In this document: in pieces, positions 9,944-50,555 of the stretch | Position numbering within the stretch: position 1 is the first letter of the stretch | Layout: each line of letters opens with the position of its first letter | NCBI GenBank assembly: GCA_041308845.1 | Contig: JBFZAT010000026.1 | Span: 41,102-105,101, forward strand | Origin: Candidatus Omnitrophota bacterium | Lineage (GTDB): Bacteria > Omnitrophota > Gorgyraeia > Gygaellales > Profunditerraquicolaceae | Length of the DNA: 64,000 bases | Direction of reading: 5' to 3' | Position numbers and translations under genes: made by a program | Notes under the pieces: generated by a model | What the model saw: the letters and a program-made list of their open reading frames with translations, nothing else | Database searches by the model: none | What the model was told of the DNA's origin: nothing

Positions 9944-11107
9944 ATGTCCGTTAAAGGTGATTATTACCAAATCCTGGGAGTTTCCAAGACTGCGGGTCTG
10001 GATGAAATCAAAAAGGCTTATCGTGAAATGGCGCTTAAATTTCATCCGGACCGCGTTCCTGCCGAAGAGAAGAAAACTGCGGAAGAAAAGTTTAAAGGTA
10101 TCTCTGAGGCCTATGCTGTGCTCTCGGATTCTACTAAACGTAATCTGTATGATCAATATGGGCATTCTGGTATCGACCAGAAATATGCTCAGGAAGATAT
10201 TTTTAAAGGAGCGGATTTTAGCAGTATATTTAGGGAGATGGGCGGTGGTTTTGGTGGCTCAAGCAGTATCTTCGAAGAGCTGTTTGGCGATTTGGGGTTC
10301 GACGTATCGGGTTCCCGGCAATCCCGTTCGCAAACTGCCAGACGGCGCGGCCGGGATTTGCAAATTGCTATTGAAATATCCCTGGAGGAAGCTGCTGGCG
10401 GCGTAGAGAAAATTATTACCGTGCCCCGCTATGAAACTTGTGCGGTTTGTTCAGGTAGCGGCGCTAAACCCGGGACTAAAAAAACAGTTTGTCCTCAATG
10501 CAGGGGCGCAGGTAAAACAGTGGTTTCTAATGGATTTTTTCAATTAGCGCAGACTTGTTCGCGTTGCGGCGGAGAGGGTACGTTGATCGCAGCGGCTTGT
10601 GCTGAATGCCGGGGAGAGGGCAGAGTTAAGATTACTAAAAAAATTAAAGTTAAAATCCCGCCCGGAGTGGATAACGGTTCTCAACTGCGTGTTCGTTCCG
10701 AAGGGGAGGCTGGAGTAAATAGCCGGGGAGATTTATATGTAATTATTGAGCTTAAGGAACATGCTATTTTCGCCAGACATAATAATGATATTGCTACTTC
10801 GGTGAATATTAGCTTGGCCAGAGCGGTTTTAGGCGGGGAAGTTGAAGTTCCGGCTTTAGACGGGAAATTAACAATGAAGATTCCGGCAGGTACTCAATGC
10901 GGTAAAACTTTCCGTCTTAAGGGTAAAGGTATTCCGGATCTACACTCCCGGGAGATGGGGGATGAGCTAATCAGGGTAGATATTGAAATTCCCACCCGCT
11001 TGACTGCTCAGCAGAGGCAATTGATTGAAGAATTTGCGCGTTTAAACGGAGAAAATTTAGGAGCTAAGGAAAGCTTTACGGATAAGTTCAAGAAAACATT
11101 TCGTTAA
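9944..11107 (+). CDS. dnaJ: chaperone DnaJ
   Basis: J-domain HPD motif, a G/F-rich region and four CxxCxGxG zinc-finger repeats. Confidence 0.95.
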
Positions 11108-14945: not shown

Positions 14946-16229
14946 ATGCAGCAAAATATTACCCGCAAAAAATTCTGGTTGTATTTATTATCCTTGGCCG
15001 GGTTGCTTTTGATCGGTAGTTTCGTTTTCTTCCCACAAAAAATTTCTCCGTTTCTTTTTCTCGTATTTATTCTGATCAACGTTTTTATTTCTATTTTCCT
15101 GCTTAAGTTTTATTCGGATAAAATTCAACTGAACCAGTCCCGCTGTGAACATGATCAAGAAGCAATCAATATTGTACAAGTCGTAAATAAAAAAAGCCAA
15201 GAGTATAATCTGGCTTTAAAATCGAAAATCCAGCGTTACAATAATTTAAAAAAATTAATCGAGGATCTTAACCTGAGCTTGAAGCTAGATATCTTAATCC
15301 GGGTTTTAAGCTCAACCGTTTACACGTTGATCTCCGATAGTACTGGTTTGGCATTATTTTATTTATTGGACAATCATCGTCAAAAGCTTAATCTGGTCTA
15401 TTCAATCAAAGAGCAAAGTGATCTGGTAGTATTGGCTAAAGAAGGGGATATTTTTGATCAATGGGTTTTGAGGCATTCTAGCCAGCTATTAATCGAAAAT
15501 CTAAAAAGTGATTTTCGTTTCGATGCCGGTAGCATCCGCAGTCAGGAAATGCGCGAAGTTGCATCTTTAATTAGTTCGCCGTTGGTCAGTAATAATTCTT
15601 TACTGGGATTGTTGCGGCTAGAAAGCAGAAATGATAATTTTTTCAACCAGGATGATCTGCGCTTTCTTTCTTTGGTAGCAGATTTAGGGTCAGTGGCTCT
15701 GGAGAACAGCCTACTTTTTCAGAAGACGCAGGATTTGGCTATCCATGATGACCTCACCGCTTTATACACCCGTAATTATTTTATTGATCGTTTACGAGAG
15801 GAGGCTAAGCGCTGCCAGCGCTTGGATCAGCATTTGTCGCTTATGATGATCGATATTGATTTTTTTAAACAGTACAATGATAAATTTGGTCATATTGCCG
15901 GAGACTTGGTGTTAAAACATCTGGGAATATTATTAAAGAATGAATTGGCGGCATATAATCCTTTAATCTGCCGCTTTGGGGGGGAAGAATTTTTAGCGAT
16001 GTTTTCCGGAATAGATAAAAAGAGATCGTTAACCATCGCGGAGGCTTTACGGCAGAGGATTCAAAAAGAAAAAATTACTCTGCGCCGGCAAGATACGCAG
16101 ATAACCGTTTCTATTGGAGTGGCTAGTTTACCTTTGGACACCAAAGATGAAGATGAATTAGTCCAGAAAGCGGATAAGTCGATGTACGCCGCTAAGGGAA
16201 AAGGCAGAAATCAAGTATGTTCAATATAA
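14946..16229 (+). CDS. membrane-anchored GAF-GGDEF diguanylate cyclase
   Basis: Two N-terminal TM helices, a GAF-like middle, and a GGDEF domain with an intact RFGGEEF active site. Confidence 0.8.
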   Translation: MQQNITRKKFWLYLLSLAGLLLIGSFVFFPQKISPFLFLVFILINVFISIFLLKFYSDKIQLNQSRCEHDQEAINIVQVVNKKSQEYNLALKSKIQRYNNLKKLIEDLNLSLKLDILIRVLSSTVYTLISDSTGLALFYLLDNHRQKLNLVYSIKEQSDLVVLAKEGDIFDQWVLRHSSQLLIENLKSDFRFDAGSIRSQEMREVASLISSPLVSNNSLLGLLRLESRNDNFFNQDDLRFLSLVADLGSVALENSLLFQKTQDLAIHDDLTALYTRNYFIDRLREEAKRCQRLDQHLSLMMIDIDFFKQYNDKFGHIAGDLVLKHLGILLKNELAAYNPLICRFGGEEFLAMFSGIDKKRSLTIAEALRQRIQKEKITLRRQDTQITVSIGVASLPLDTKDEDELVQKADKSMYAAKGKGRNQVCSI

Positions 16230-17212
16230 TTTTATATTTAATTATTACTTTGGCTATTAGTTTATTACTAAGAGAATTTTTTGTGAGCCAAATAAGAGAG
16301 CAACAGAGGCATGTCCTTGATTTAACCGATGAGCTTAAGCGTTCCAACCTTTCAAATGAACAATTAAATTTAGAAAATAGTTTACTGACTAAAAAGCTTG
16401 AAGACACATTAGCCCTTTATGAGTTAACTAAAGATATATGCCGGAGTTTAGATGAAGAAAAAGTGTTTGCTATTTTTAAGCAAAATTTAGATAAACATTT
16501 GGGGCCGGGTGATTACCGCTATATTAAAAATAGTTCGGATTTGATAAAATATACAAATTATACTGTTTTACCTTTAAAGTTAGAGGGTGATCAAATCGCC
16601 GGCTATTTGGCAGTGGATAGAATCTTAGAAACCGATAAGGAAAAGTTCGGAATTTTGGTCCAGCAATTTATGATTGGCTTAAGAAGGGCATTACTTTATC
16701 AAAAGGTCCAAGCTTTAACGATTATGGACGTTTTAACCGGGGTTTATTGCCGCCGGTACTTTTTAGAGCGTTTTAGCGAAGAACTTAAACGCGCAAAAAA
16801 GAATAAATTGGCTTTAGCTTTTCTGATGATTGATATAGATAATTTTAAGCAATTCAATGACCGTTACGGGCATCTGGTTGGGGATGCGATATTACGCCAG
16901 GTTTCTAAGACCATCCGGGATGCGGTCAGACAGATTGATTTTATCGGCCGTTACGGAGGTGAAGAAATAGTCGTAATTTTAGCCGAAACCGGTAGGGAGC
17001 AGGCTAATTTTGCCGCTGAGCGTATCCGGCAGGCAATTACTGCCGAAGTAATCAGGGTCTATGATGAAGAAATTAGAGTGACTGTTAGTATCGGGGTAGC
17101 TACTTTTCCGGACAATGCTCTGAATATGCAAAATTTGATTGAACTGGCGGATCAGGCTTTATATTTAGCCAAGGAAACCGGCAAGAACAGGGTGTGTTTT
17201 TCTCCGGCCTAA
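16217..17212 (+). CDS. GAF-like-GGDEF diguanylate cyclase
   Basis: N-terminal TM and coiled coil; GGDEF domain with RYGGEEI. Overlaps the previous DGC by 13 nt. Confidence 0.8.
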   Translation: MFNIILYLIITLAISLLLREFFVSQIREQQRHVLDLTDELKRSNLSNEQLNLENSLLTKKLEDTLALYELTKDICRSLDEEKVFAIFKQNLDKHLGPGDYRYIKNSSDLIKYTNYTVLPLKLEGDQIAGYLAVDRILETDKEKFGILVQQFMIGLRRALLYQKVQALTIMDVLTGVYCRRYFLERFSEELKRAKKNKLALAFLMIDIDNFKQFNDRYGHLVGDAILRQVSKTIRDAVRQIDFIGRYGGEEIVVILAETGREQANFAAERIRQAITAEVIRVYDEEIRVTVSIGVATFPDNALNMQNLIELADQALYLAKETGKNRVCFSPA

Positions 17213-26376: not shown

Positions 26377-27257
26377 AATTGATTAGTTTTTATAATCAAA
26401 TGGTACGCTTAGGCCGCCTGGCTGATCCGCGCAGAGATAAAACTGCGATTAAATCTTTCCCGGATTCGGCAATTCTTTTCGGTCAGCCTAATTTAGAGAT
26501 AAATAAAATTATGGTGGGTATCGATATTGAAGTGGCTGAGCTTTTATTGGCTGACCGTATTCGTCAAAAGGAAGGATTGGATTTAGTTCTAGCTCATCAT
26601 CCTGAAGGCAAGGCTTACGCCGGCTTACATGAAGTGATGCGCCTGCAAATAGATCTCTTAATCCGAGCCGGAGTTGCCCAACAGACTGCTCGGCGGTTAT
26701 TAGAAGAGCGGATGGCTGAAGTAGAGCGCAGGGTACTGCCTCAAAACCATACCCGCCCGGTAGACGCAGCCAGGTTATTGAACATTCCGTTTATGAATAT
26801 GCATACGCCGGCTGATAATCATGTTTACCGCTACCTGGAAGCTATCTTTCGGAAAAAATCAACCATTCCGGTCCGGGTAGAGGATGTAGTGACAGTATTA
26901 AATACTATTCCTGAATATCAGCTGGCCCGGAAATTTAATACCGGTCCGCGGATTATTTTGGGCAATCCTAAGCGGCCGGTAGGTAAGATACTTTTGGAGA
27001 TGACCGGAGGCACTGAGGGGTCTAAAGATGTTTTTGATAAATTATATAAAGCCGGGGTAAGGACTTTGGTGTCGATGCATCTAAGTGAAGAGCATTTTAA
27101 AAAGGTCAAAGACGCCAATTTAAATGTAGTTATTGCTGGCCATATTTCTTCGGATACCCTGGGACTAAATCTGCTTTTGGATAACATCGAAAGATCTGCT
27201 GGTCAGGAATTTCAAGTGGTTGCTTGCTCTGGTTTCACCCGCATTAAAAGAAAGTAG
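26373..27257 (+). CDS. Nif3-like (YqfO/YbgI family) dinuclear-metal-centre protein
   Basis: LVLAHHP and a C-terminal AGH motif with NIF3-like spacing. Its position upstream of dnaG-rpoD is conserved in many bacteria. Confidence 0.5.
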   Translation: MKLISFYNQMVRLGRLADPRRDKTAIKSFPDSAILFGQPNLEINKIMVGIDIEVAELLLADRIRQKEGLDLVLAHHPEGKAYAGLHEVMRLQIDLLIRAGVAQQTARRLLEERMAEVERRVLPQNHTRPVDAARLLNIPFMNMHTPADNHVYRYLEAIFRKKSTIPVRVEDVVTVLNTIPEYQLARKFNTGPRIILGNPKRPVGKILLEMTGGTEGSKDVFDKLYKAGVRTLVSMHLSEEHFKKVKDANLNVVIAGHISSDTLGLNLLLDNIERSAGQEFQVVACSGFTRIKRK

Positions 27258-27261
27258 AAAG

Positions 27262-29028
27262 ATGACTGGAAGGATTCCCGAAAACTTTTTAGAAGATATC
27301 CTGGGGCGGATAGATATCGTTGAGGTTATTTCCGGTTATATCCCGCTTAAAAAAGCCGGAGCGAACTTTAAAGCGAATTGCCCGTTTCATCATGAAAAGA
27401 CTGCCTCTTTTATGGTTTCTCCGGAGCGTCAAATTTACCATTGTTTTGGCTGCGGTGAATCCGGCAATGCATTTAAATTCCTGATGCGTCATGAACGGAT
27501 GGAATTTCCCGAAGCAGTAGAAATCTTGGCAAAGAAATGCGGGGTCAACCTTCCGGATCAGCATAAACCGGGATTAGAGCGGACCGCCAGTTTAAATAGC
27601 CAGTTATATAAAGTGAATGAATTGGCGCTGGGATTTTATGAAAACAGCTTACAGTCCGTCGATTCCCAGGCAGCTAGGGATTATTTGCTTAAGCGTGGAG
27701 TTAAGCTGGTAACGATTAAAGAATGCCGTTTAGGCCTAGCTACATCGGGTTGGGATAATTTGATTAATTTTTTACGTTCTCAAGGCATAAATTTAGCCTT
27801 GATGGAGCAAGCGGGCTTAATTCTGCCTAAAGATACAGGAGGTTATTACGATCGGTTTCGTAACCGGATTATCTTCCCTGTATTTGACTTACGTAGCCGT
27901 TTGATTGGATTTGGAGCTCGGGTACTAGATGATAGTTTGCCTAAATATGTAAATTCACCGGAAACCCCGGTTTATAGTAAGGGTAAAAATCTCTTCGGTT
28001 TTAATCTATCCAAAGATTTTATCCGTCAAACAGATAGCGTGGTCATTGTGGAAGGTTATCTGGATTTCATTATTCCGTATCAAGAAGGTTTAAAAAATAT
28101 TGTTGCTTCGCAAGGAACCGCTTTAACTATAGAGCAGATAAGATTAATCAAACGATATACCCATAATGCAGTTATGGTATATGATGGTGATACCGCTGGG
28201 CAGCTGGCTACCTTAAGAAGTTTGGATTTGTTGATTGAGGAAGGGCTGGATGTAAAAATTGTTCCTTTACCTAAGGGTGTTGATCCTGATGTTTTAGTTC
28301 GCCAAGAGGGGGTCGATACTTTAAAAAATCGGGTGCGCCAGGCAGTAAGCTTTTTCGATTATAAATTGGAGGTGTTAAAGAGTCTGCATGACATAAGAGA
28401 TGCCCACGGTAAAACTAGGATTGCTCAAGAGATGCTTTTGACGATAAATAAATTTGAAAATGCTATTTTGAGAGGGGAATATATTAAAAGATTATCTGAT
28501 CAGATGCGCATACCGGAGCCCTACATTTTGGAGGAGTTGCATAAATTAAAACCTGCTTTTTATCGGTCCGTCGATCAACCGGCTACTCCTACGCCTAAAC
28601 CTTTAGCGATCAATCCGGCCGAGAAGCTTTTAATCAAATTTATGTTGGAAGGTAATGAGGCAATCGAAAGAATCATGAGTGAACTTTCACTCTCTGACTT
28701 TCAGGATGCCCGGACAGCTAAAATTGTTGCCTTGATGCAGGAATTAGTCCTACAAGGTAAAAGTATTTCACCCAGTATTTTGATGAATTATTTTAATGAA
28801 GATGATGCTAGCCAATTAGTTTGCGAAACAATGTTTATGCCGGCGCTGAGCGATCAGAGCAGGGAAAAAGCGGTTAATGATTGTATTGCGCGAATTAAGG
28901 TACAAAGGCTTAAATCAAGACGCGAACATCTTCATATACAGATTAAAAGTGCCCAATCCTTAGGTGACCAGGATCGGTTAAGTAGTCTTATTCAAGAATT
29001 TCATAACCTCATAAAGAAAGGCGATTAA
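27262..29028 (+). CDS. dnaG: DNA primase
   Basis: Zinc-binding [11 protein letters not shown]...CFGCG and a TOPRIM domain. The ATG at 27262 follows the upstream stop at 27257; the ORF-track start at 27220 overlaps that gene. Confidence 0.9.
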
Positions 29029-29030
29029 TC

Positions 29031-30590
29031 ATGAAGAAAACCCCGCAGCAACCCACTAAAGATATGGAGAAACTGATTGCCCTGGGTAAACAAAAAGGTT
29101 TCCTTACTTACGATGAGGTTAATGATTTACTGCCGGAGGATCTTTCTAGTACCGTAGCTATTGATCACCTTTTTGAACTTTTGGGTAATGAAGATATCCA
29201 GGTGGTGGAAGGCGAAACTGATGCTGGTTTATCGGCTAACCGGGCTTCTCAGCAGGATAAGCAGAATTTAGTTCAACAGCGCGAAGAACTGTTGAGTGAA
29301 CAATTAAAAAGCGAAGAACGATTTATGCCTTTAGATGATCCGGTTAAAATGTACTTAAAGCAGATGGGTTCGATCTCTTTATTGAGCAGGGAGAATGAAA
29401 TTGAGCTGGCTAAAAAAATTGAGGATGCCGAAGATAAGTTTAAACGCGCCAGTTTAGTTACCAAATTTGTCAGAAATGAAGTTTTAGTGGTAGCTGCTAA
29501 TATCCTCGAGGATAAAATCAATATGGAAGAGGTGGTCAAGGAAGATATCCATATTAAAAAAAGTAGTTTATTGGGTAGATTTAAGCGAATTTTAGGGAAA
29601 ATTAAGCAAACGCGGAGTGAAAGTAACGCGATAAATTTAATTTTACAGCTTAATTTCACTACTTCGGTTATTGAGGCTGCGGTACGTAAATTAAGCCTGC
29701 AGCTACGGGAGTTGGAGCATCAGCGCCGGATGAATAAACGGGCTAACCTGCGCAGCCGGCAGATATTAAAAGATTTTGGGCAGCCCTACAGTAAAATCAA
29801 AGAACAAATAAAAGTTATTAAATCCGCCCATCTTAAATTCAGCCGGACAAAAAAGAAGTTAGTAGAAGCCAACCTTCGTTTAGTAGTGAGCATTGCTAAA
29901 AAATATACTAACCGTGGGCTTTCTTTTCTAGATTTAATTCAGGAAGGTAATATTGGTTTGATGCGGGCGGTAGAAAAATTCGAATATAAGCGTGGTTATA
30001 AGTTTTCCACCTACGCTACTTGGTGGATCCGGCAGGCGATTACCCGTTCTATCGCTGACCAGGCCCGGACTATCCGAATACCTGTACATATGACTGAGAC
30101 AATTAATAAAATCATCCGTTTCTCACGTGTTTTCGTACAAAAGAATGGCAGGGAGCCTACCCCGGAAGAGATCGCGCATAAAATGCGTTTTCCTCAAGGC
30201 AAGATTAAGTCTATATTAAAGATTGCCCAGGAGCCGATTTCCCTGCAAATGCCTATTGGTGATGAAGGAGATACGCATTTCGGTGATTTTATACAGGATA
30301 AAAAAGCAGTTTCCCCGGCTAATGAAACAGTGCGTTCAATGTTAAAAGATGAAATGAATTCAGCCTTGGGCACTTTAACCGAACGAGAGAAAAAGATTTT
30401 AGTTTTACGTTTTGGTATTCAAGATGGGTCTGCGCGTACCCTAGAAGAAGTCGGTAATGTTTTTAAGGTCACCCGGGAAAGGGTCAGGCAGATTGAGGCT
30501 AAAGCTTTAAAGAAACTCAGGCATCCTTCACGCTCGCGCCGCTTAAGGACGTTTATGGATATGACTTTAGCGCACCAGAGGGAATATTAA
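29031..30590 (+). CDS. rpoD: RNA polymerase sigma factor RpoD (sigma70)
   Basis: Regions 1.2 to 4.2 are present, including the [19 protein letters not shown] rpoD box. Confidence 0.95.
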
Positions 30591-30715: not shown

Positions 30716-33700
30716 ATGGAAAATCATAAAAAACAAAATTTTGAAACCACTTTAGCCAAGCTGCGTAAGGTAGAATTTCAGCAGAAAGCAATCTTGGATA
30801 ATATTCCGGATATCGCCTGGCTTAAAGATCTTCAAGGTAGATTTATTGCGGTCAATCAGCCTTTTGCTAAAGCCTGTGGTTTTAAAGTCGGAGAAATTAT
30901 TGGTAAGACGGATTTGGAAATCTGGCCTAGAGAATTAGCGCTTAGTTATATTGCTGATGACCGGGAGGTCATCGAAAGTAAAAAACGTAAGTGTGTTCAG
31001 GAACGGTTGATGTATCAGGAAGGTGGCGAGCAGTGGATTGAGACTATCAAGACCCCGTTTTTTGATGATCACGGAGATGTCATCGGCACTACCGGGATTG
31101 CCAGAAATATTACTTTGCACAAAAGTGAAGCCGAAAGGTTAAAAGAAATCCGTGCTGAGCTTGAACTTAGAGTTAAGGTGCGCACTTCGGAGCTAGCCAG
31201 TTTTAACGAAGCCTTACGTAAAGAAATGCGGGTAACTCAAGAAGCTCAAAAAGAACTCGCCAGCCTGGGCAACTTTCTTACTAATGTTTTTAATAGTATC
31301 CAAGACGGGTTATCGGTTCTGGATAATAAGATGAATATTGTGCGGGTTAACCCGACAATGGAGAAGTGGTATGCATTTAACATGCCGCTTATCGGAAAGA
31401 AATGTTATCAGGCTTATCATCAGCGCAGCAAACCTTGCGAAGTTTGTCCGGTAGCGGAAACTTTCAAGACGCATCAAGCTGCGCATTTTATTAATCCAAT
31501 GGATGATAAGGATGGAAAAACAATCGGATATTTTGATTTATATAGTTTTCCCATGTTTGATGAAAATACTAAAGAATTAATCGGAGTGATTGAATATGTA
31601 CGAAATATCACCGAGCAAAAATTTGCCCAGGAGGCTTTACGATTAAGTGAAGAAAAATTTAAAAGCATCTTTGAATATTCTAATCTTGGTTTATTAGTTT
31701 TAGATGCGCAAACCCGCAAATTTATTTTATGCAACCGTATAATTCAAAAGATGCTCGGTTATAGGCAAGAAGAGCTTCTACAGATGAAAGTCTCCGATAT
31801 TCATCTTCAGAATGATTTATCCCAGCTAAACGCTCATTATGAGGGCTTAAAAAATAGCGGCCAAGTTTATTTACATTTCTTCCCGGTTAAAAGAAAAGAT
31901 GGCGGTATTTTTTATGCCGATATTAATGCTACCAAGCTGGTTTTAGATGGTAAGGAATGCGTTTTAGCTAATTTTGAAGATGTTACCGCGCAGAAGGAGA
32001 ATGTAGATAAATTAGCCAGGGCTGAAGAGCGCTACCGTTTAATTACGGAACAAACCGGCCAGTTGATTTATGATCTAGATATGTCAACCCAAAAAATTAT
32101 CTGGGGCGGATTAATTGAGAATATTACCGGCTTTAGCCAAGAGGAGTTTAGTCAGGTTGATCTTAAGCGTTGGGAGGAGATGATCCATCCCGATGACCGT
32201 AAAAACGCTGTGGATTTATTGAATCAATCTATAAAATCCGGCCAAGCATATAAGGCGGATTACCGTCTTTTACATAAAAACGGTTCATATATATATATGG
32301 GTGATCGGGGTGCATTCTTAAGGGATAATAATGGTGTCGTTTATCGTATGTTAGGCTGTATGGAAGATGTTAGTAAAAACCTAGAATATGCCAATGAGCT
32401 TAAGATATATCGGGAGAAGTTGGAAACATTAGTTGAACAGAGGACAAAATCTTTGGAATTAGAAATTGCTACGCGTAAAGAAATGGAAGAAAAAGCGGGT
32501 ATTTTACATCAACAGCTGGAGTTTATCTTAGGGGTTACTAAAACCGGGCTGGATATTATTGATCAAGATTATAACTTACGTTATGTTGATCCGGCTTGGG
32601 CGAGTAATTACGGTGAATGGAAAGGCAAGAAGTGTTATGAATATTTTATGGGCCGTAATAGTTCCTGTGCCAACTGTGCTATCGAAGAAGCTTTTAGAAC
32701 CAAAAAAACCGTAATCAGCGAGGAGATTTTAACCAGAGAAGGCAATCGGCCGATTCAGGTCACAACGATACCTTACCAGGATAAGAATAATGATTGGTTG
32801 GTAGCCGAAATTAATCTCGATATTACTCAGAAAAAAATAATTGATGAAGAGCTCAAGCGTTACCGTAATGATTTAGAGGCCCTGGTCGGTGAACGGACTC
32901 GTGATCTTTTGGAGGAAACTAATCGTTATAAAGCTGCGGAATTGGAGAAAAGTAAGCTTAATCGAGAGCTAATTAAGGTTAACGAAAAATTAAAAAGCAT
33001 TTCACTGATTGACGCGCATACGGGTTTATACAACTATCGTTATCTGCAGGAAGCTATTGAAGTGGAGTTTCATCAAGCCAGAAGGTATGCCCAAAATTTA
33101 TCGATTATCATGCTGGATGTAGATTATTTTAAATCGATTAATGATGTTTACGGAATAGTTTTCGGAGACCTGGTTTTAAAGCAGCTGGCCAAACAACTGA
33201 AACGTATGGTGAGGCGTTACGATATCCTTGTCCGTTACAGCGGCGAGGAATTTATTATCATCTCTCCCCGCTTAAACCGCAGTACGGCTTTTAATATGGC
33301 TCAAAGATTATTGGATTCTTTAAATTTCATTAATTTCGGTAATAAAAAACATAGTGTTAAATTAAAAATCAGCCTTTCGGTTGTTTCTTTTCCGGAAGAC
33401 CGAGCAAAAAACGGCATGGATTTAATTAATTTAGCCGATTTATTATTAAGCCGGGCTAAAGAAAGCGGTGGTAACCGCGTCTATTCATCTCTGGATATGA
33501 AAAACTCGCTGACTAAAGGGATGGAAAGAATTTCTAAATCCGTGGGAATAAAAACTTTAAAGAATACCATTAGTAAGCTGAACAAGCAATCTAAGCAAGG
33601 GCTTAGTGAATCAATCTTTGCTTTTGCTAAGACCCTGGAATTAAAAGATCATTATACTGGTGAACATGTTGAAAACACGGTGCATTTTGCTACCGGTGTG

Positions 33701-34156
33701 GCTAAAGAACTGAATCTGCCGAAAGAGGAAGTAGAACTAATTAAGCAGGCGGCTATGCTGCACGACCTGGGTAAAATCGGTATCAGCGAAAATATCCTGC
33801 TTAAAAAAGGAAAGCTTAACAAAAAAGAATTCGAAGAGATAAAAAAACATCCGCAGATTGGTGCTGATATTATCCGTCCGATCCAATTTTTGCACGACCT
33901 GATCCCTTTTATTTTTTATCACCATGAGCGTTGGGATGGTAAAGGTTACCCTAGTGGAATTAGGGGTGAAGACATCCCTTTGGGTGCCCGAGTAATCGCG
34001 ATTGCTGATGTTTATCAAGCTTTGATTAGTGATCGGCCGTATCATAAAGCATTTACTAAGAGCGCAGCCATTGAAATCATCAAAAAAGCCTCCGGAACGC
34101 AATTCGATCCCCGTATTGTCAGCGTTTTTCTTAAGGTGATCGGAGAAGAAAAGTAA
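30716..34156 (+). CDS. multidomain c-di-GMP signalling protein: about 5 PAS domains, a GGDEF with a degenerate site (SGEEF), and an HD-GYP phosphodiesterase
   Basis: Repeated PAS cores; GGDEF region RYSGEEFIII; C-terminal HD-GYP motifs HD..GK and HHERWDGKGYP. Two PAS domains carry a C-X10-C-X2-C triad. Confidence 0.85.
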   Translation: MENHKKQNFETTLAKLRKVEFQQKAILDNIPDIAWLKDLQGRFIAVNQPFAKACGFKVGEIIGKTDLEIWPRELALSYIADDREVIESKKRKCVQERLMYQEGGEQWIETIKTPFFDDHGDVIGTTGIARNITLHKSEAERLKEIRAELELRVKVRTSELASFNEALRKEMRVTQEAQKELASLGNFLTNVFNSIQDGLSVLDNKMNIVRVNPTMEKWYAFNMPLIGKKCYQAYHQRSKPCEVCPVAETFKTHQAAHFINPMDDKDGKTIGYFDLYSFPMFDENTKELIGVIEYVRNITEQKFAQEALRLSEEKFKSIFEYSNLGLLVLDAQTRKFILCNRIIQKMLGYRQEELLQMKVSDIHLQNDLSQLNAHYEGLKNSGQVYLHFFPVKRKDGGIFYADINATKLVLDGKECVLANFEDVTAQKENVDKLARAEERYRLITEQTGQLIYDLDMSTQKIIWGGLIENITGFSQEEFSQVDLKRWEEMIHPDDRKNAVDLLNQSIKSGQAYKADYRLLHKNGSYIYMGDRGAFLRDNNGVVYRMLGCMEDVSKNLEYANELKIYREKLETLVEQRTKSLELEIATRKEMEEKAGILHQQLEFILGVTKTGLDIIDQDYNLRYVDPAWASNYGEWKGKKCYEYFMGRNSSCANCAIEEAFRTKKTVISEEILTREGNRPIQVTTIPYQDKNNDWLVAEINLDITQKKIIDEELKRYRNDLEALVGERTRDLLEETNRYKAAELEKSKLNRELIKVNEKLKSISLIDAHTGLYNYRYLQEAIEVEFHQARRYAQNLSIIMLDVDYFKSINDVYGIVFGDLVLKQLAKQLKRMVRRYDILVRYSGEEFIIISPRLNRSTAFNMAQRLLDSLNFINFGNKKHSVKLKISLSVVSFPEDRAKNGMDLINLADLLLSRAKESGGNRVYSSLDMKNSLTKGMERISKSVGIKTLKNTISKLNKQSKQGLSESIFAFAKTLELKDHYTGEHVENTVHFATGVAKELNLPKEEVELIKQAAMLHDLGKIGISENILLKKGKLNKKEFEEIKKHPQIGADIIRPIQFLHDLIPFIFYHHERWDGKGYPSGIRGEDIPLGARVIAIADVYQALISDRPYHKAFTKSAAIEIIKKASGTQFDPRIVSVFLKVIGEEK

Positions 34157-34191
34157 CTCCTTCGCCGTCTTTAATTTAAACAATTTTTAAC

Positions 34192-34260: not shown

Positions 34261-34334
34261 GGGCCCATAGCTCAGTCGGTTAGAGCAGTTGACTCATAAT
34301 CAATTGGTCCGGGGTTCGAGTCCCTGTGGGCCCA
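34261..34334 (+). tRNA. tRNA with anticodon CAT; features favour tRNA-Ile2 (lysidine) over elongator Met
   Basis: Manual cloverleaf: acceptor GGGCCCA/TGGGCCC, D-arm GCTC-AGTCGGTTA-GAGC, anticodon stem GTTGA/TCAAT with loop CTCATAA, T-arm CGGGG-TTCGAGT-CCCTG. C4-G69 and C5-G68 in the acceptor and a TTGGTC variable loop resemble tRNA-Ile(LAU). Confidence 0.85.
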
Positions 34335-34570: not shown

Positions 34571-34644
34571 GGGCGATTGGCTCAGTTGGTTAGAGCGCTA
34601 CATTCACATTGTAGATGTCAGAGGTTCGAGTCCTCTATCGCCCA
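34571..34644 (+). tRNA. tRNA-Val (anticodon CAC)
   Basis: Manual cloverleaf: acceptor GGGCGAT/ATCGCCC, D-arm GCTC-AGTTGGTTA-GAGC, anticodon stem CTACA/TGTAG with loop TTCACAT, T-arm AGAGG-TTCGAGT-CCTCT. Confidence 0.85.
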
Positions 34645-34675: not shown

Positions 34676-35386
34676 ATGGATTTAAAAACTCAGCTTATTG
34701 GTTTAGTCAAGTTGCAGGAATTAGACAGCGAAATTTATGCTTTGGGGAATGAATTGGCAGCTAAACCTGAAGAAATTAAACTGCTAGAGGCGGGTTTTGC
34801 AGCTAAAAAACAGGGATTAACGCTTTTAGAGAAAAAATCATTAGATTTACAAAAACAGCGTAAAGAGCAGGAGCTTGAGCTGGCGACTAATGCCGAAGGA
34901 GTCAGAAAGCTCAGCGGTCAGCTGTTTTCTTTAAAAACTAATAAAGAATTCCAGACGATGCAGCAGCAGATCGCCGATGCAAAAGCGGATGCAGCGGTGA
35001 TCGAAGAGAAAATCCTGATTTCTTTCGAAGAATCAGATAAGATTAAAGCTCAGATAGATGCTGAGAACCTAAAACTTAAGGATGAAGAAAAGCTCTTTCT
35101 TCAGCAGAAGAAAAGCGTAGAAATGCGTATTCAAGAGATTGGCGACCGGTTACGCCAGCTGGATGCACAAAGAAAGCAGCTTATCCCTGGTATCGACCCT
35201 AAGATGCTACAGGAATATGAAAGAATTTTATCCAGCCGGGGCGGTTTGGCTATTGTTACGGTCAAGGATAATTCTTGTGGCGGATGCCATATGTTAGTGC
35301 CTCCACAGGTAATTAATTTAATTAAGATGTACGAACATATTGTCACTTGTGAAGTCTGTAACCGTATTCTTTATATTAAAGAATGA
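34676..35386 (+). CDS. COG1579-type coiled-coil protein with a C-terminal C4 zinc ribbon
   Basis: Long coiled coil, then CGGCHMLVPPQ...CEVCNRILY. This family commonly accompanies rnhA and rnpB. Confidence 0.7.
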   Translation: MDLKTQLIGLVKLQELDSEIYALGNELAAKPEEIKLLEAGFAAKKQGLTLLEKKSLDLQKQRKEQELELATNAEGVRKLSGQLFSLKTNKEFQTMQQQIADAKADAAVIEEKILISFEESDKIKAQIDAENLKLKDEEKLFLQQKKSVEMRIQEIGDRLRQLDAQRKQLIPGIDPKMLQEYERILSSRGGLAIVTVKDNSCGGCHMLVPPQVINLIKMYEHIVTCEVCNRILYIKE

Positions 35387-35799
35387 ACCATTTAGAGGTT
35401 TATATTGACGGGGCGTCTCAGGGTAATCCCGGGCATAGTGGAGTAGGGATCGTAATTTTTCATCATGGTTTACGGATTAAGAATATCTCAAATTATATCG
35501 GCAAGGCAACCAATAATGTCGCCGAATATACTGCTTTGATTTATGCTTTGGAAGAAGCGTTATTGCTGAAAGCTAAAAGCCTGAAAATTAATACCGATAG
35601 CCAACTCTTAGCCCGGCAGTTAAATAAAATTTATAAAGTTAAACATGCCGGGATAATAGGTTTATTTAACCGGGCGACTCATCTCTTAACCGGTTTTGAA
35701 AAAGTTGTAGTTAACCATATCCCCCGGGAAGAAAATAAGCTGGCGGATAAATTGGCCACCCAGGCGATTAATTCTTTTCTGGGAAAATCTTTGATTTAA
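35383..35799 (+). CDS. rnhA: ribonuclease HI
   Basis: 138 aa: DGASQGNPG (catalytic Asp), E in EYTALIYALEEA, TDSQ, and a C-terminal D in ENKLADKLA. Confidence 0.8.
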   Translation: MNHLEVYIDGASQGNPGHSGVGIVIFHHGLRIKNISNYIGKATNNVAEYTALIYALEEALLLKAKSLKINTDSQLLARQLNKIYKVKHAGIIGLFNRATHLLTGFEKVVVNHIPREENKLADKLATQAINSFLGKSLI

Positions 35800-36203
35800 G
35801 CAGGCAGAGTGTGGCTGCCCGCCACTATATCAGTGGCGGGAGGAAAGTCCGGGCTCCAGAGGGTAGCGTAACGGATAATGTCCGTCCTGTATAGTTAATA
35901 TGCAGAGGATCCCCGTTTAAAATCTAGCGGGGCCGCCATTTTCGGCGAAAGAGCCACAGAGACGAGTAACCGCTTTTAAAAGCGGCGAAGTGAAACGCGG
36001 CAATCTCTACGCGGAGCAAAGTAGAATAGGAGATGAGCGCTGATCCGGCGCGCTTTCCGCCTCGGCGGAAAACAATCTCGGGTAAACTGCTAAAGTTCTC
36101 GCGGTAACGCGGAAATTGAGAGGAATAGCCACTGCGATGTAGCATGCGCCTGCCTTGCCGGCAGGCGGGCATCAAGACAAAACCCGGCTTATTCTGCCTG
36201 CTT
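35800..36203 (+). ncRNA. rnpB: RNase P RNA (bacterial type A-like)
   Basis: Universal motifs GGGAGGAAAGTCCGGGCTCCA near the 5' end and ACAAAACCCGGCTTA near the 3' end; P1 pairing GCAGGCAGA (35800-) with TCTGCCTGC (-36201). ORF-track entry 35924..36175(-) lies inside it and is spurious. Confidence 0.85.
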
Positions 36204-36280
36204 TAATCTTAGACTGAACGATATATAATTTATCGGTAGATTACCGTATTAAACATCAATTAAACATTAAAGGAGGATTT

Positions 36281-47357: not shown

Positions 47358-50300
47358 TTAGCTTAAATAAATATCGATTTTTTTAATTTCCCGCGATCTG
47401 ACTGCCTGGGCATAAGGTGGAGGAATTACCGCGCCCTCTAACTGCACGGATTGTTTTTTATCCTGGAGTACGATCCTGTTGATTATGGCGGCTTGCCGGC
47501 CGAAAGTGTTTTTTCTTTTAGGGTTATGGTAGGTTACCCGGACCTGACTTAAAAAATTAAAAGTATATTCCCCGTTTTTGTTAAATAACCAGCCGGGTAA
47601 ATTTGGCTTAAAAATTAAGTTTAGCTGTCCGGTTTTGTTTAGGGTAAAAGGAGTAATCCCTGCGTGCATGATTAACCAAATCTGCAAGAATTCAGCAGTT
47701 GAACCGGAAAGCCTGGCTACAAACCCATTGCCATGCAATTTTTTGTCTGCGAATGCGCTGCTGACTAAAAAAGAAGAATTTTCTAGAATACTGCGTCCGT
47801 AGACCTGCGGGTTCTGAAAAGGGATTAAAACTTGTTTAAATTCGGTATAAAATTCTTCGACCAATCCAGCCTTGAGCAGTTCTAGAATATACTTGTACTC
47901 CATATGCAACCAAATAGATTCGTTCTCCAGCCAGCCTGGGCTAAAGATTCTGCAACGGCCGATTTCTTCCGGCATGCTGGTTAGAGAGGCGGTTACTTTA
48001 TACATTTTAAGTTTTTTATCAAAAAGCGCACTGTTTTTGGTTGCTTGGTGCAGGGCTAATTTCTGTTGCGGTTCATCTGCCAACCTTAATGCATGCATCT
48101 GGCCCTCCAGGAATAAAGGGAGGGGTTTTTGAATGAATTTTTTAGGCTTTAAAAAGTGGTCCCGGATTAAATCATACTCTACAACTTCATTAATAAAATA
48201 TGAATGGTAAACTCCTTTTTTACTGTCGAGTGCCTTATTTAGGCCTGCTTCTACTTTGTTCAGCCCCGCTTCAAGAAAAAGGTTTAGTTTATCTACAGAA
48301 AGATTTAATAGGCGTCCGGAAAACCCCAAACGAGTTTTGTGCCGGAAATTTTCTTTCAAGGTATTGCTTTTATCCCAATAAGAAAAAGCTGTATCTGTAA
48401 ATATCGGCAAGAGTTCTTCAATAAACACCGCTATTTCTTCGGGCATTTCTACTTCTCCGGATGCGGAGAGCTTTAAAGCTTGTTTAGTCATTTTAAGCAA
48501 GCGCTTTAATTCAAATGTTTCGCAGGCCGATGATCCAAAAAGAGCTGGCAATCCGTTAAGCGAATCAAACCAGTTTGGTTTATTAGCCTCCATTTCAATG
48601 CCCACTCCGCAGGCATCCAGTGAAGCCAGTTTATTCACTGCTAAGCATAAAAGTTTTACCATTAGGCTGGTATAATAGATCTGGCCTTCTCCGTTCAGCA
48701 TTCTGAGAGCATGCGGGTTAACCTTGCGCCGGCGCAGGAGCTCTTTTTTATGGCTGTCAAGCGTAAGGGAATGTAGTTGACGAGGTTGTCCGTTATACAA
48801 TATGTATTTTTCACTACGCGGTCGAACGGTCTCGGGATTATCAAAAAACGAAAAAACTTTCCGGGTCCAAAAGAGTTCTTTTGCTTTTTCCGGGAATAAC
48901 TCTAGGTAGCGATCAATTAAATCTAGATTATACGTCCAGTGGTCAGTCCAGAACCCTTCTCCGTGTTCAGCCTCGTGAATTTTTAAGGCATGAGAAAGGA
49001 TAATATCCAGGAACTCATCATAGGAGGAGTTGATTTTAATTTTGTTTTCTTCGATAAAAAAGATCAGCTCGCCCGGGCTAAAAGGCTTTTTCAGAAAAAC
49101 GCAAAGTTTATCCTTATCGGTTTCTTGGCTGACGGTTTCCAAGAGTTCATGCTTATCCAGATTTTCCTCAACCAGAAAACTCTCCGGTTTGACCACTAAG
49201 GGATTGAAGCCATCCGCTTGGATTAAATTCATAAAGAAAACAATGTTTTCATCTTGAATATCCGGATTAAACCAGGGGTCATTACGGCGGTTTTGGTTGG
49301 TGTCCCGGTAATTGCCGTTGCCTTGGGAAAGATAAGTAGGCTGTAACTGAAATTTATTATAATCTCTTTCCAGGTCTCCGTGTTTACGCGAATAAAGATA
49401 AAAAACTACCCCGGATTTAAAAACTTCAGGATATCCTCCGCGCATAATGTTGTCCAGGTAAGTCTGGCCGGAGTATAAGTTGAATTCAGCGCTGCTGCTT
49501 TTAGTTAAAATATTATTTTTTAAACTTTCAATGAGCGCCAGATTTTGCAGCGCTTTTTCTTCGATATACCCGGGGGCAATAATTTTTTTTACCGATTGAT
49601 TTAAGGTCTCTGGATTACGTGCCTGTCCGCTTACTGCGTAAAATAGCTCCGCCTGGGCAGGTTTTAATTCTAAATTTAATAAGAGCAAAGCACTGGGAGT
49701 TTTGCTTTGCTTGAGTTGCTGTCTGGGATAGGAAAATTTATTAGTAGAAAGAAAAGTGGCTGGATAAGAAAAATCGGTCACCGGACCAAAGACTGCTTGT
49801 GGATCAACAATTGGTTTTATTATTAGATTTTTCCCTCTTTGCTTGCTGAATCCCAGGTAGAAGTTTCCTGGTTCAATATGCACTACTTCCGGACGGTCAG
49901 CCGGATCAACCTGGAGCCTGTAAAAGGGCACGGAGTTTTCTAGGTTGTCAACTGTCATCCAGGCTTCAATGGTGCGCCCGAGTTTTTTAAGGAAGAAGTT
50001 ATTTGTCCCGAAGGGGACGGTTTGCACTAGCCCGTCGATTAGCTGTAGGGATTTGATTTTCCTGCCGGTATTTTCGATACTTACTGTCCGGCTTAAGCCG
50101 GCGTAGTTATCATTAGGGATATTAAAATATCTTACTTGGATTTTTATCCCTAGAGTATGATTTTCTTCTTCCAAGATTAATTCTTGCGAAGCGATGCGCA
50201 GGCGGTTGCTGATTTGGTATTTAAGATTATTATAGCCATTATGGAAAGGTTCATAATAAATCGGTTCGGATTTCTTGTCCTGGAGTTTAATGAATGTGCG

Positions 50301-50555
50301 GAAGCCATGGCTTGTAGATAATTGCCAGGCCTTATTGGCCGGAAAGAATTCTAGGATCGCATGGTCTTTGTCTTTAGTTCCGAAGCTGCAAATACATTGA
50401 CCGCGGTTGACATAGAAGACCCACATCGGGATCCCGTATTTACCGGCTATTCCCGGGAAGAAATTAGCAAAGGGCTTGGCGTAATTATAATTTTCAATAA
50501 CAAATTCACCTTGCGGGTTGAGATAATATTTGGGTTTTAATTGTCGGTTTGGCAT
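47358..50555 (-). CDS. GH94-family glycoside phosphorylase-like protein (size and architecture resemble 1,2-beta-oligoglucan / cellodextrin phosphorylases)
   Basis: 1065 aa. The N-terminal beta-sandwich resembles the cellobiose-phosphorylase N-domain (EFVIENYNYAKPFANFFPG versus the EYVITTPHTPYPWINYLG pattern). An (alpha/alpha)6 region carries a G.G.RD.NQ phosphate-site-like motif (QGNGNYRDTNQNR). It is the only minus-strand gene in the window. Confidence 0.55.
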   Translation of the reverse strand: MPNRQLKPKYYLNPQGEFVIENYNYAKPFANFFPGIAGKYGIPMWVFYVNRGQCICSFGTKDKDHAILEFFPANKAWQLSTSHGFRTFIKLQDKKSEPIYYEPFHNGYNNLKYQISNRLRIASQELILEEENHTLGIKIQVRYFNIPNDNYAGLSRTVSIENTGRKIKSLQLIDGLVQTVPFGTNNFFLKKLGRTIEAWMTVDNLENSVPFYRLQVDPADRPEVVHIEPGNFYLGFSKQRGKNLIIKPIVDPQAVFGPVTDFSYPATFLSTNKFSYPRQQLKQSKTPSALLLLNLELKPAQAELFYAVSGQARNPETLNQSVKKIIAPGYIEEKALQNLALIESLKNNILTKSSSAEFNLYSGQTYLDNIMRGGYPEVFKSGVVFYLYSRKHGDLERDYNKFQLQPTYLSQGNGNYRDTNQNRRNDPWFNPDIQDENIVFFMNLIQADGFNPLVVKPESFLVEENLDKHELLETVSQETDKDKLCVFLKKPFSPGELIFFIEENKIKINSSYDEFLDIILSHALKIHEAEHGEGFWTDHWTYNLDLIDRYLELFPEKAKELFWTRKVFSFFDNPETVRPRSEKYILYNGQPRQLHSLTLDSHKKELLRRRKVNPHALRMLNGEGQIYYTSLMVKLLCLAVNKLASLDACGVGIEMEANKPNWFDSLNGLPALFGSSACETFELKRLLKMTKQALKLSASGEVEMPEEIAVFIEELLPIFTDTAFSYWDKSNTLKENFRHKTRLGFSGRLLNLSVDKLNLFLEAGLNKVEAGLNKALDSKKGVYHSYFINEVVEYDLIRDHFLKPKKFIQKPLPLFLEGQMHALRLADEPQQKLALHQATKNSALFDKKLKMYKVTASLTSMPEEIGRCRIFSPGWLENESIWLHMEYKYILELLKAGLVEEFYTEFKQVLIPFQNPQVYGRSILENSSFLVSSAFADKKLHGNGFVARLSGSTAEFLQIWLIMHAGITPFTLNKTGQLNLIFKPNLPGWLFNKNGEYTFNFLSQVRVTYHNPKRKNTFGRQAAIINRIVLQDKKQSVQLEGAVIPPPYAQAVRSREIKKIDIYLS

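Follow-up and report, generated by a model that had tools for sequence, protein, structure and literature searches.

What do the cysteine-bearing PAS domains of a cyclic di-GMP (c-di-GMP) signaling protein bind, and what might they report to the enzyme to which they are joined? This question is raised by an open reading frame (ORF) at positions 30716-34156 of the plus strand of a 64,000-nucleotide stretch of DNA from a Candidatus Omnitrophota bacterium (contig JBFZAT010000026.1 of assembly GCA_041308845.1; the whole of this stretch is referred to here as the window). The ORF call together with Pfam and NCBIfam models defines a protein of 1146 amino acids composed of five PAS domains, a coiled-coil linker, a GGDEF domain and an HD-GYP domain, and all of the protein features described below accordingly lie on the plus strand. 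PAS domains rank among the commonest sensors inside cells, yet the cofactor or ligand of most is unknown, and PAS domains carrying an iron-sulfur (Fe-S) cluster have been characterized in only a few instances, namely NreB and OrpR. The best explanation of the observations presented here is that the protein is a cytoplasmic one-component c-di-GMP signaling enzyme, and that its second and fifth PAS modules (PAS2 and PAS5) are members of a separate PAS subfamily marked by three cysteines in the arrangement C-X10-C-X2-C. Specifically, the protein likely represents a new variant of the Cys-ligated, metal-binding PAS sensor, mounted on an ordinary c-di-GMP enzyme.

The protein contains 11 cysteines, six of which make up two triads of identical spacing. 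Triad A (31403-31447) lies within PAS2 (residues 180-314, including an N-cap helix and a C-terminal helix; 31253-31657) and consists of C230, C241 and C244, with H235 five residues beyond the first cysteine (position +5) and P245 directly after the CxxC. Triad B (32633-32677) lies within PAS5 (residues 590-724; 32483-32887), a domain directly upstream of the GGDEF linker that is supported by its AlphaFold 2 (AF2) model and by its retention in shorter orthologs, and consists of C640, C651 and C654, with E642 at +2 and M645 at +5. For a protein of this length and cysteine content, the C-X10-C-X2-C pattern is expected by chance 7.5e-4 times, and two copies were obtained in none of 200,000 random placements of the cysteines; the triads, as the initial annotation of this DNA had proposed, are real and not a product of chance. 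The longer motif that the same annotation described as common to both domains is accurate at all positions save one: the residue preceding the second cysteine was given as Lys or Ser, but in PAS2 it is Pro240, with K239 lying one residue further back. Elsewhere among the proteins of the window, C-X10-C-X2-C was found only in DnaJ zinc-finger repeats near position 10565 of the plus strand; this match falls within the CxxCxGxG repeats of an ORF at 9944-11107 that is assigned to DnaJ by motif alone, and is unrelated to the PAS motif.

Conservation of the triad among orthologs had been suggested as a check on its importance, and the triad withstands it. All three cysteines are present in 177 of 177 domain copies from the approximately 120 best Omnitrophota homologs, copies that were extracted by the motif and therefore contain the three cysteines by construction, and the same three residues are invariant in each of four alignments (A1-A4), including cross-phylum alignments of 80 and 59 proteins; alignments A2 and A3 were chosen only through the first cysteine (Cys1). 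In most homologs the triad occupies both PAS positions or, at a minimum, the one adjacent to GGDEF. Invariant columns of the joint alignment A1 are limited to D24, G48, K50, C51, C62, C65, P100 and E114, in a domain numbering to which 179 is added to give the PAS2 residue number. Two types can be distinguished by consensus, GKKCYxAYHxxxxPCxxCPxxET for type A (PAS2) and GKKC[YF]EYFMxRKxxCPxCAIEEAF for type B (PAS5). Across subtypes, in 288 representatives less than 70% identical to one another, which were motif-selected such that the Gly and the three cysteines are fixed by construction, E114 is conserved in 90%, P100 in 95% and D24 in 92%, and a Pro stands directly after the CxxC in 211 of the 288.

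This picture was extended by searching 1.84 billion representative proteins with a profile, which returned 94,802 proteins at E<=1e-3, 30,397 at 1e-10 and 2,979 at 1e-30, where the E-values are those of whole proteins and those with several PAS domains score cumulatively. Among the best 147 new library proteins, 142 contain the motif, in up to five copies per protein, and the X10 spacing is found in 233 of 237 GxxC[YFHW]...CxxC contexts. Additional subtypes retain this spacing without the His, namely GEKCYRxYEG...IC.xCPVE and GxKCYExLQG..EPCxFCTN. Subtypes lacking the +5 His, GEYCYKTY...ICxDCPVE also among them, co-occur with type A within single proteins, and one protein was observed to carry five copies of a subtype with Glu at +5.

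Both triads occupy the same place within the PAS fold. The AF2 models of PAS2 and PAS5 (predicted local distance difference test, 93.2 and 85.7, respectively) display an ordinary PAS topology with the same order of secondary structure elements, comprising a five-stranded antiparallel beta-sheet and the C, D, E and F alpha-helices, and PAS profile hidden Markov models match both domains. In these models Cys1 is the first residue of a short helix (51-56, domain numbering), and the CxxC is found in a loop ending at a second helix (66-73). The best PDB profile match is the LOV domain of YtvA (2pr5; E 5e-5), and the alignment, gap-free across the cysteine region, places Cys1 on the flavin-adduct cysteine of LOV (GKNC) in E-alpha and the CxxC where F-alpha begins; LOV domains likewise head the fold matches. 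As judged from profile alignment and models, the location of the triad is that of the canonical cofactor pocket of PAS domains. The side chain of E114, on I-beta, should also project into this pocket because the residue lies two positions before that of the LOV signaling Gln, counted back from the DIT motif.

The coincidence of Cys1 with the adduct cysteine, together with LOV domains being both the best profile and the best fold matches, could be taken to mean that the pocket holds an organic ligand or a covalently attached cofactor (such as a flavin or a bilin-type thioether, as in LOV or PYP domains) and no metal at all. The LOV flavin residues, however, namely the N, R and Q of GxNCRFLQ, are absent from both domains (GKKCYQAYH and GKKCYEYFM), indicating positional equivalence and not LOV membership, and two further invariant cysteines are present, of which a single thioether has no need. 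Assignment as a c-type heme PAS was also rejected, there being no CXXCH in these domains and the CxxC being followed by Pro or Ala, not His. An organic or covalent cofactor consequently appears very improbable.

The residues surrounding the triad suggest how a bound metal might be coordinated. Across phyla, type A retains a His at +5 of Cys1 with at least 90% conservation, and among the 288 representatives the +5 position is filled by His (163), Met (35), Glu (26) or Gln (24). The sole recurrent extra cysteine is found at +6, in 15 of the 288, and in 14 of these 15 it follows a +5 His to give the sequence HC. The occurrence of ligand-capable residues at +5, along with the recurrent +6 Cys, points to a fourth ligand contributed from that spot, while in type B, where the +5 Met is not invariant, a fourth ligand, if there is one, would come from elsewhere or be exogenous. 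Taken together, the position of the triad, its invariance and the +5/+6 pattern argue for a four-coordinate metal site within the PAS pocket, as predicted from sequence and models.

These same features bear upon the possibility that the cysteines function without a metal, as a thiol/disulfide switch in which the CxxC forms a disulfide and Cys1 is available for exchange or sulfenylation, so that the domain reports cytoplasmic redox state or reactive oxygen species. A CxxC at the N-terminus of a helix has the geometry of a thioredoxin-like redox-active disulfide, and thiol-based redox sensing by PAS proteins and kinases has precedents in ArcB and AccS. A third invariant cysteine held at a strict X10 distance, the ligand-type residue at +5 and the recurrent cysteine at +6 are, on the other hand, hallmarks of coordination, and a metal-free switch is for these reasons considered improbable.

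Occurrence of the module outside of Omnitrophota was investigated by scanning a single genome from each GTDB species for the pattern G[KR]KC[YF][QEA][AYV][YF][HM], followed by confirmation with tblastn, which together detected the module in at least 575 species genomes. The best 80 of these at least 575 matches, on which the lineage counts that follow are based, are 45-67% identical to PAS2 over approximately 115-135 residues. By record title, they derive from Omnitrophota (17), Thermodesulfobacteriota and other 'delta' lineages (17), Planctomycetota (12; Planctomycetia, Phycisphaerales and Sedimentisphaerales), archaea (9; Methanoperedens, Methanosarcinales, Methanomicrobiales, Hadarchaeota and Promethearchaeota), Aminicenantes (5), Fibrobacterota/Chitinivibrionales (5) and Nitrospirota (3), with the remainder from WOR-3, Dehalococcoidaceae, Clostridiales and others; nearly all of the best 80 come from anaerobic lineages. 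For PAS domains, an identity of 45-67% across bacterial and archaeal phyla is unusually high, and is indicative of tight constraint. The proteins that host the module vary: in a set of 59 from outside of Omnitrophota, most are histidine kinases (HATPase_c in 38 of 59), and GGDEF is combined with HD-GYP in six or seven. The triad, then, marks a broad, modular PAS subfamily and is not a quirk of one protein.

Such breadth is relevant to a further reading, in which a soft metal or metalloid ion, be it As(III), Cu(I), Hg(II), Cd(II) or Pb(II), is sensed directly at a trigonal S3 site built from the three thiolates. A set of three cysteines is the signature of As(III) binding, sites of this kind exist in the literature, and only three residues of the motif are strictly invariant. 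Against this stand the very wide occurrence of the module, both in species genomes and among the 2,979 library proteins at the strictest cutoff (a figure reflecting summed PAS copies), the placement of the gene in a conserved housekeeping neighborhood beside rpoD, and the lack of resistance or efflux genes adjacent to it. The chance that the domain is a soft-metal sensor is accordingly judged to be slim.

No specific model for the Cys-triad PAS was found in NCBIfam, where the best match was the generic LIC_12097 kinase model (E 3e-8). Searches of the literature with the motif text returned only unrelated proteins (RdhA, FhuF and RING fingers), and searches on zinc or Fe-S PAS domains, cysteine triads and archaeal kinases returned NreB, OrpR, WalK, AccS and PdtaS only, none of which has the motif. 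No solved structure, curated model or paper devoted to a C-X10-C-X2-C PAS domain was found, although absence from the literature searched is not the same as being undescribed.

Among characterized sensors, NreB and OrpR nonetheless permit an instructive comparison. In NreB of B. licheniformis (PDB 9wex) a [2Fe-2S] cluster is bound by C63, C66 and C78 and by a labile sulfur ligand, and C78 is located directly before a short helix, Tyr79-Ala82 (PMC13478379). As is proposed for the domains described here, NreB has a cytoplasmic PAS domain with cysteine ligands in the E-alpha region and directly before F-alpha, needs no more than three cysteines, and has a fourth ligand that varies or is not part of the protein, with Staphylococcus NreB containing a [4Fe-4S] cluster. 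NreB was also the only Cys-bearing PAS domain obtained from a search of PDB sequences. The two differ in that the NreB pattern, C-X2-C-X11-C(-X2-C), is of a 2+1 order that is mirrored by the 1+2 order of C-X10-C-X2-C, and in that NreB is a histidine kinase of Bacillota whereas the Cys-triad subfamily spans many anaerobic phyla and archaea. Assignment to the NreB type, which the initial annotation named as an example for comparison, is not supported, as the order of the cysteines is reversed.

OrpR of D. vulgaris contains a redox-sensitive [4Fe-4S] cluster on C52, C61 and C65, with a conserved Asp or Glu at position 54 and thiols 5-8 Å apart in the authors' model (PMC8359166). This protein, itself a redox sensor from an anaerobe, has its cluster in the same part of the PAS fold as the triads, as does NreB, and shares with PAS2 and PAS5 a 1+2 arrangement of three PAS cysteines, and its acidic residue two positions after Cys1 (E54) corresponds to E642 in PAS5 and Q232 in PAS2. 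It differs in spacing, C-X8-C-X3-C by published residues as compared with C-X10-C-X2-C, and in having a sigma-54 activator as its output. The OrpR-type pattern is not matched in its spacing, despite the presence of an acidic or amide residue (E, Q or D) at +2 in 209 of the 288 representatives.

Of the occupants that the three-cysteine site might have, a redox- or oxygen-labile Fe-S cluster is the most likely, a tentative assignment to which we give somewhat less than an even chance. It is ranked first because of the analogy to NreB and OrpR, the bias of the distribution toward anaerobes, the Cys-Pro ending of the CxxC and the variability of the fourth ligand. The Pro after CxxC resembles the C-P end of ferredoxin cluster motifs, and a distribution biased toward anaerobes fits an oxygen-labile cofactor better than it does a structural ion. 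The view of the initial annotation, that the triad is a metal (Zn or Fe-S) or redox-sensing site, is upheld as a hypothesis, a site of this kind being the most plausible interpretation given that the triad maps to the PAS cofactor pocket.

Several observations weigh against an Fe-S cluster. Firstly, Cys3His with a CxxC knuckle is a textbook zinc site. Secondly, the similarity to NreB (9wex_A) is weak (E 4e-4 with a single sequence and 2e-4 with a profile) and no better than that to LOV domains. Thirdly, the anaerobic distribution is that of the best 80 of at least 575 matches and depends upon the labels of metagenome-assembled genomes (MAGs), a few of which (Nitrospira, Bdellovibrio and Verrucomicrobiota) do not denote strict anaerobes. 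Additionally, the +5 Met of type B is exchanged for R, K, L, S, A, V or Y in some orthologs, and the statistics for spacing, conservation and the +2, +5 and +6 positions are drawn from domains selected by the motif itself.

The first of these points leads directly to a structural alternative, in which Zn(II), held by the triad and by His235 or another residue, staples the lid formed by E-alpha and F-alpha without being sensed, and the domain either senses something else or serves only in dimerization or transmission. A Cys3His set with a CxxC at the N-terminus of a helix is typical of zinc sites, the +5 His is highly conserved in type A across phyla, and the loop is predicted by AF2 with high confidence with no cofactor present. 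That PAS domains can bind zinc is exemplified by WalK, as cited in PMC10468136. A staple of this type would nevertheless occupy the canonical sensing pocket and not a peripheral location, the variation of the fourth ligand among His, Glu, Met and Gln and the tandem arrangement of mixed subtypes in up to five copies have more the appearance of tuning of a reactive site, and a purely structural ion leaves the bias toward anaerobic lineages unexplained. On balance, structural zinc is regarded as somewhat unlikely, yet it ranks second after the Fe-S cluster and ahead of the dithiol switch, the soft-metal site and the organic cofactor.

Under the preferred Fe-S interpretation, the three cysteines would create a site for a metal cofactor where the PAS pocket opens, one at the start of E-alpha and the CxxC before F-alpha. 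A fourth ligand would be furnished or tuned by the amino acid found at Cys1+5, which is His235 in PAS2 and Met, Glu or Gln elsewhere, or alternatively by the inward-facing conserved Glu on I-beta (E293 and E698). Loss or oxidation of the cofactor, or exchange of a ligand, would alter the E-alpha/F-alpha lid and the beta-sheet, and the resulting signal would travel along the helical linker that follows PAS5 to reach GGDEF and HD-GYP, shifting the balance between c-di-GMP synthesis (or the sensing of GTP or c-di-GMP) and hydrolysis. The linker spans approximately residues 716-763 (32861-33004); the C-terminal helix of the PAS5 model reaches the end of the modeled segment, and we infer from the sequence that this helix continues into GGDEF.

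More tentatively still than the Fe-S assignment itself, it is proposed that the Cys-triad domains constitute an unrecognized family of Fe-S PAS sensors across anaerobic bacteria and archaea. In such a family the fourth ligand (His, Glu, Met, Gln or Cys at +5 or +6) might tune cluster type or reactivity, and differently tuned copies in tandem (PAS2 and PAS5 here; up to five elsewhere) might grade the sensing of oxygen, redox state, nitric oxide or sulfide. In Omnitrophota the family would provide the first Fe-S input to c-di-GMP signaling, encoded in a conserved position beside the gene for the primary sigma factor. A census of c-di-GMP sensory inputs published in 2022 does not contain the terms 'iron-sulfur' or 'Fe-S' (PMC8846402), and the proposal, if true, would add a new class of input to c-di-GMP biology. 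More broadly, the subfamily could explain redox or oxygen sensing in many uncultured anaerobes, including methanogens, the methanotrophic archaea Methanoperedens, Asgard archaea and candidate phyla, and the motif would offer a simple annotation handle for thousands of proteins labeled 'PAS domain S-box'.

What these inputs would control depends upon the two output domains. The GGDEF domain (residues 764-921; 33005-33478; Pfam GGDEF E 4.7e-37) has conserved catalytic and substrate-binding residues, retaining DxDYFKSIND, GD, GEEF, KxxGGNR and an RxxD I-site, and only the first Gly of the canonical GG(D/E)EF signature is replaced (Ser842), giving the A-site sequence SGEEF (residues 842-846; 33239-33253). 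The I-site, R833-R-Y-D836 (33212-33223), lies five residues upstream of SGEEF, a spacing that we take to be the same as in PleD. In 117 homologs the metal- and GTP-binding residues and the I-site are at least 95% or at least 70% conserved. In counts among homologs the signature itself reads SGEEF in 84 or AGEEF in 7, both in close orthologs, and GGEEF in 28, which are more distant paralogs. Natural cyclases with SGDEF (ECA3270 and VF_A0057) or AGDEF signatures can be active, VCA0965 among them, whereas the SGEEF protein CdgG is inactive (PMC3974145, PMC10402110). The reading of a decayed GGDEF domain was rejected on the conservation of all other catalytic residues. The signature is no guide to activity, and the domain may act as a cyclase (perhaps a weak one), regulate the phosphodiesterase by binding GTP or c-di-GMP, or do both. 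The prediction that GGDEF is probably non-catalytic and that the net effect is degradation is not supported, given the conservation of the I-site and of all remaining catalytic residues and the existence of active SGDEF enzymes.

The HD-GYP domain (residues 971-1134; 33626-34117; Pfam HD_5 E 6e-36) was correctly described as intact. It contains the motifs DHYTGEH, LHDLGK, KHPQIG, YHHERWDGKGYP and IADVYQALxSDRPY, in which HD is located at 1016, HHE at 1069 and GYP at 1077, and the HD, HHExxDGxGYP and further His, Asp and Glu metal ligands predict a phosphodiesterase. The metal-ligand motifs are all at least 95% conserved, and among PDB entries the domain is matched best by PmGH (4mcw; E 2.4e-41), an active tri-iron phosphodiesterase. 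The combination of PAS, GGDEF and HD-GYP has been a recognized architecture since HD-GYP was first described (bioRxiv 10.1101/2021.11.05.467447). Within the region coding for HD-GYP there is also an antisense ORF of 148 amino acids with a TTG start (33737-34183, minus strand), which is probably spurious.

The remaining PAS domains are PAS1 (residues 24-133, the best stretch for Pfam PAS_4/PAS; 30785-31114), which is without a cysteine triad, PAS3 (residues 313-430; 31652-32005; best stretch 311-430 for TIGR00229 and 313-359 for PAS_8) and PAS4 (a PAS_3 core by Pfam, residues 461-548; 32096-32359). Homologs from Candidatus Omnitrophota MAGs include one that is 100% identical and a full-length series 45-79% identical. 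The orthologs fall into size classes of approximately 1146, 1020, 890 and 760 amino acids, with a varying number of PAS domains; the type-B PAS beside GGDEF is kept in nearly all of the shorter orthologs examined, and type A is sometimes missing.

The gene for this sensor follows dnaG (27220-29028) and rpoD (29031-30590), and is itself followed by two tRNA genes (34261-34334 and 34571-34644), a gene for a CT398-like zinc-ribbon protein (34676-35386), RNase P RNA (35798-36207), yebC and ruvC. The order dnaG, rpoD, sensor, zinc-ribbon is kept in several diverged Omnitrophota MAGs, in which RpoD is 74-91% identical. The sensor thus belongs to the stable core of genes in this phylum and is no accessory insertion; the c-di-GMP enzyme is a fixed neighbor of the primary sigma factor gene in Omnitrophota. 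Around the sensor gene no promoter or terminator signal rose above background. The RNase P RNA downstream of the zinc-ribbon gene is of bacterial class A (158 bits).

Two additional ORFs of the window, at 14946-17212, had been described as tandem GAF-GGDEF cyclases. This is accurate for the first, which has a Pfam GAF match and a canonical GGEEF, and inaccurate for the second, which reads GGEEI and has no GAF match. The genes overlap by 13 nucleotides; the first product has hydrophobic N-terminal segments, and in the signature of the second Phe is replaced by Ile. The accompanying claim of an unusually dense c-di-GMP circuit is not supported by the presence of three GGDEF proteins in 64 kb.

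The window has a GC content of approximately 40%, and almost all of its genes are on the plus strand. Each 2-kb bin shows a positive GC skew, the plus strand holds nearly every ORF of 150 or more amino acids, and skew and strand bias are together consistent with a single replichore having a strong gene-strand bias. On the minus strand there are only two ORFs of at least 150 amino acids: one of 1065 amino acids (47358-50555), which matches no Pfam family at E<=1e-3, and one of 153 amino acids, which overlaps plus-strand genes.

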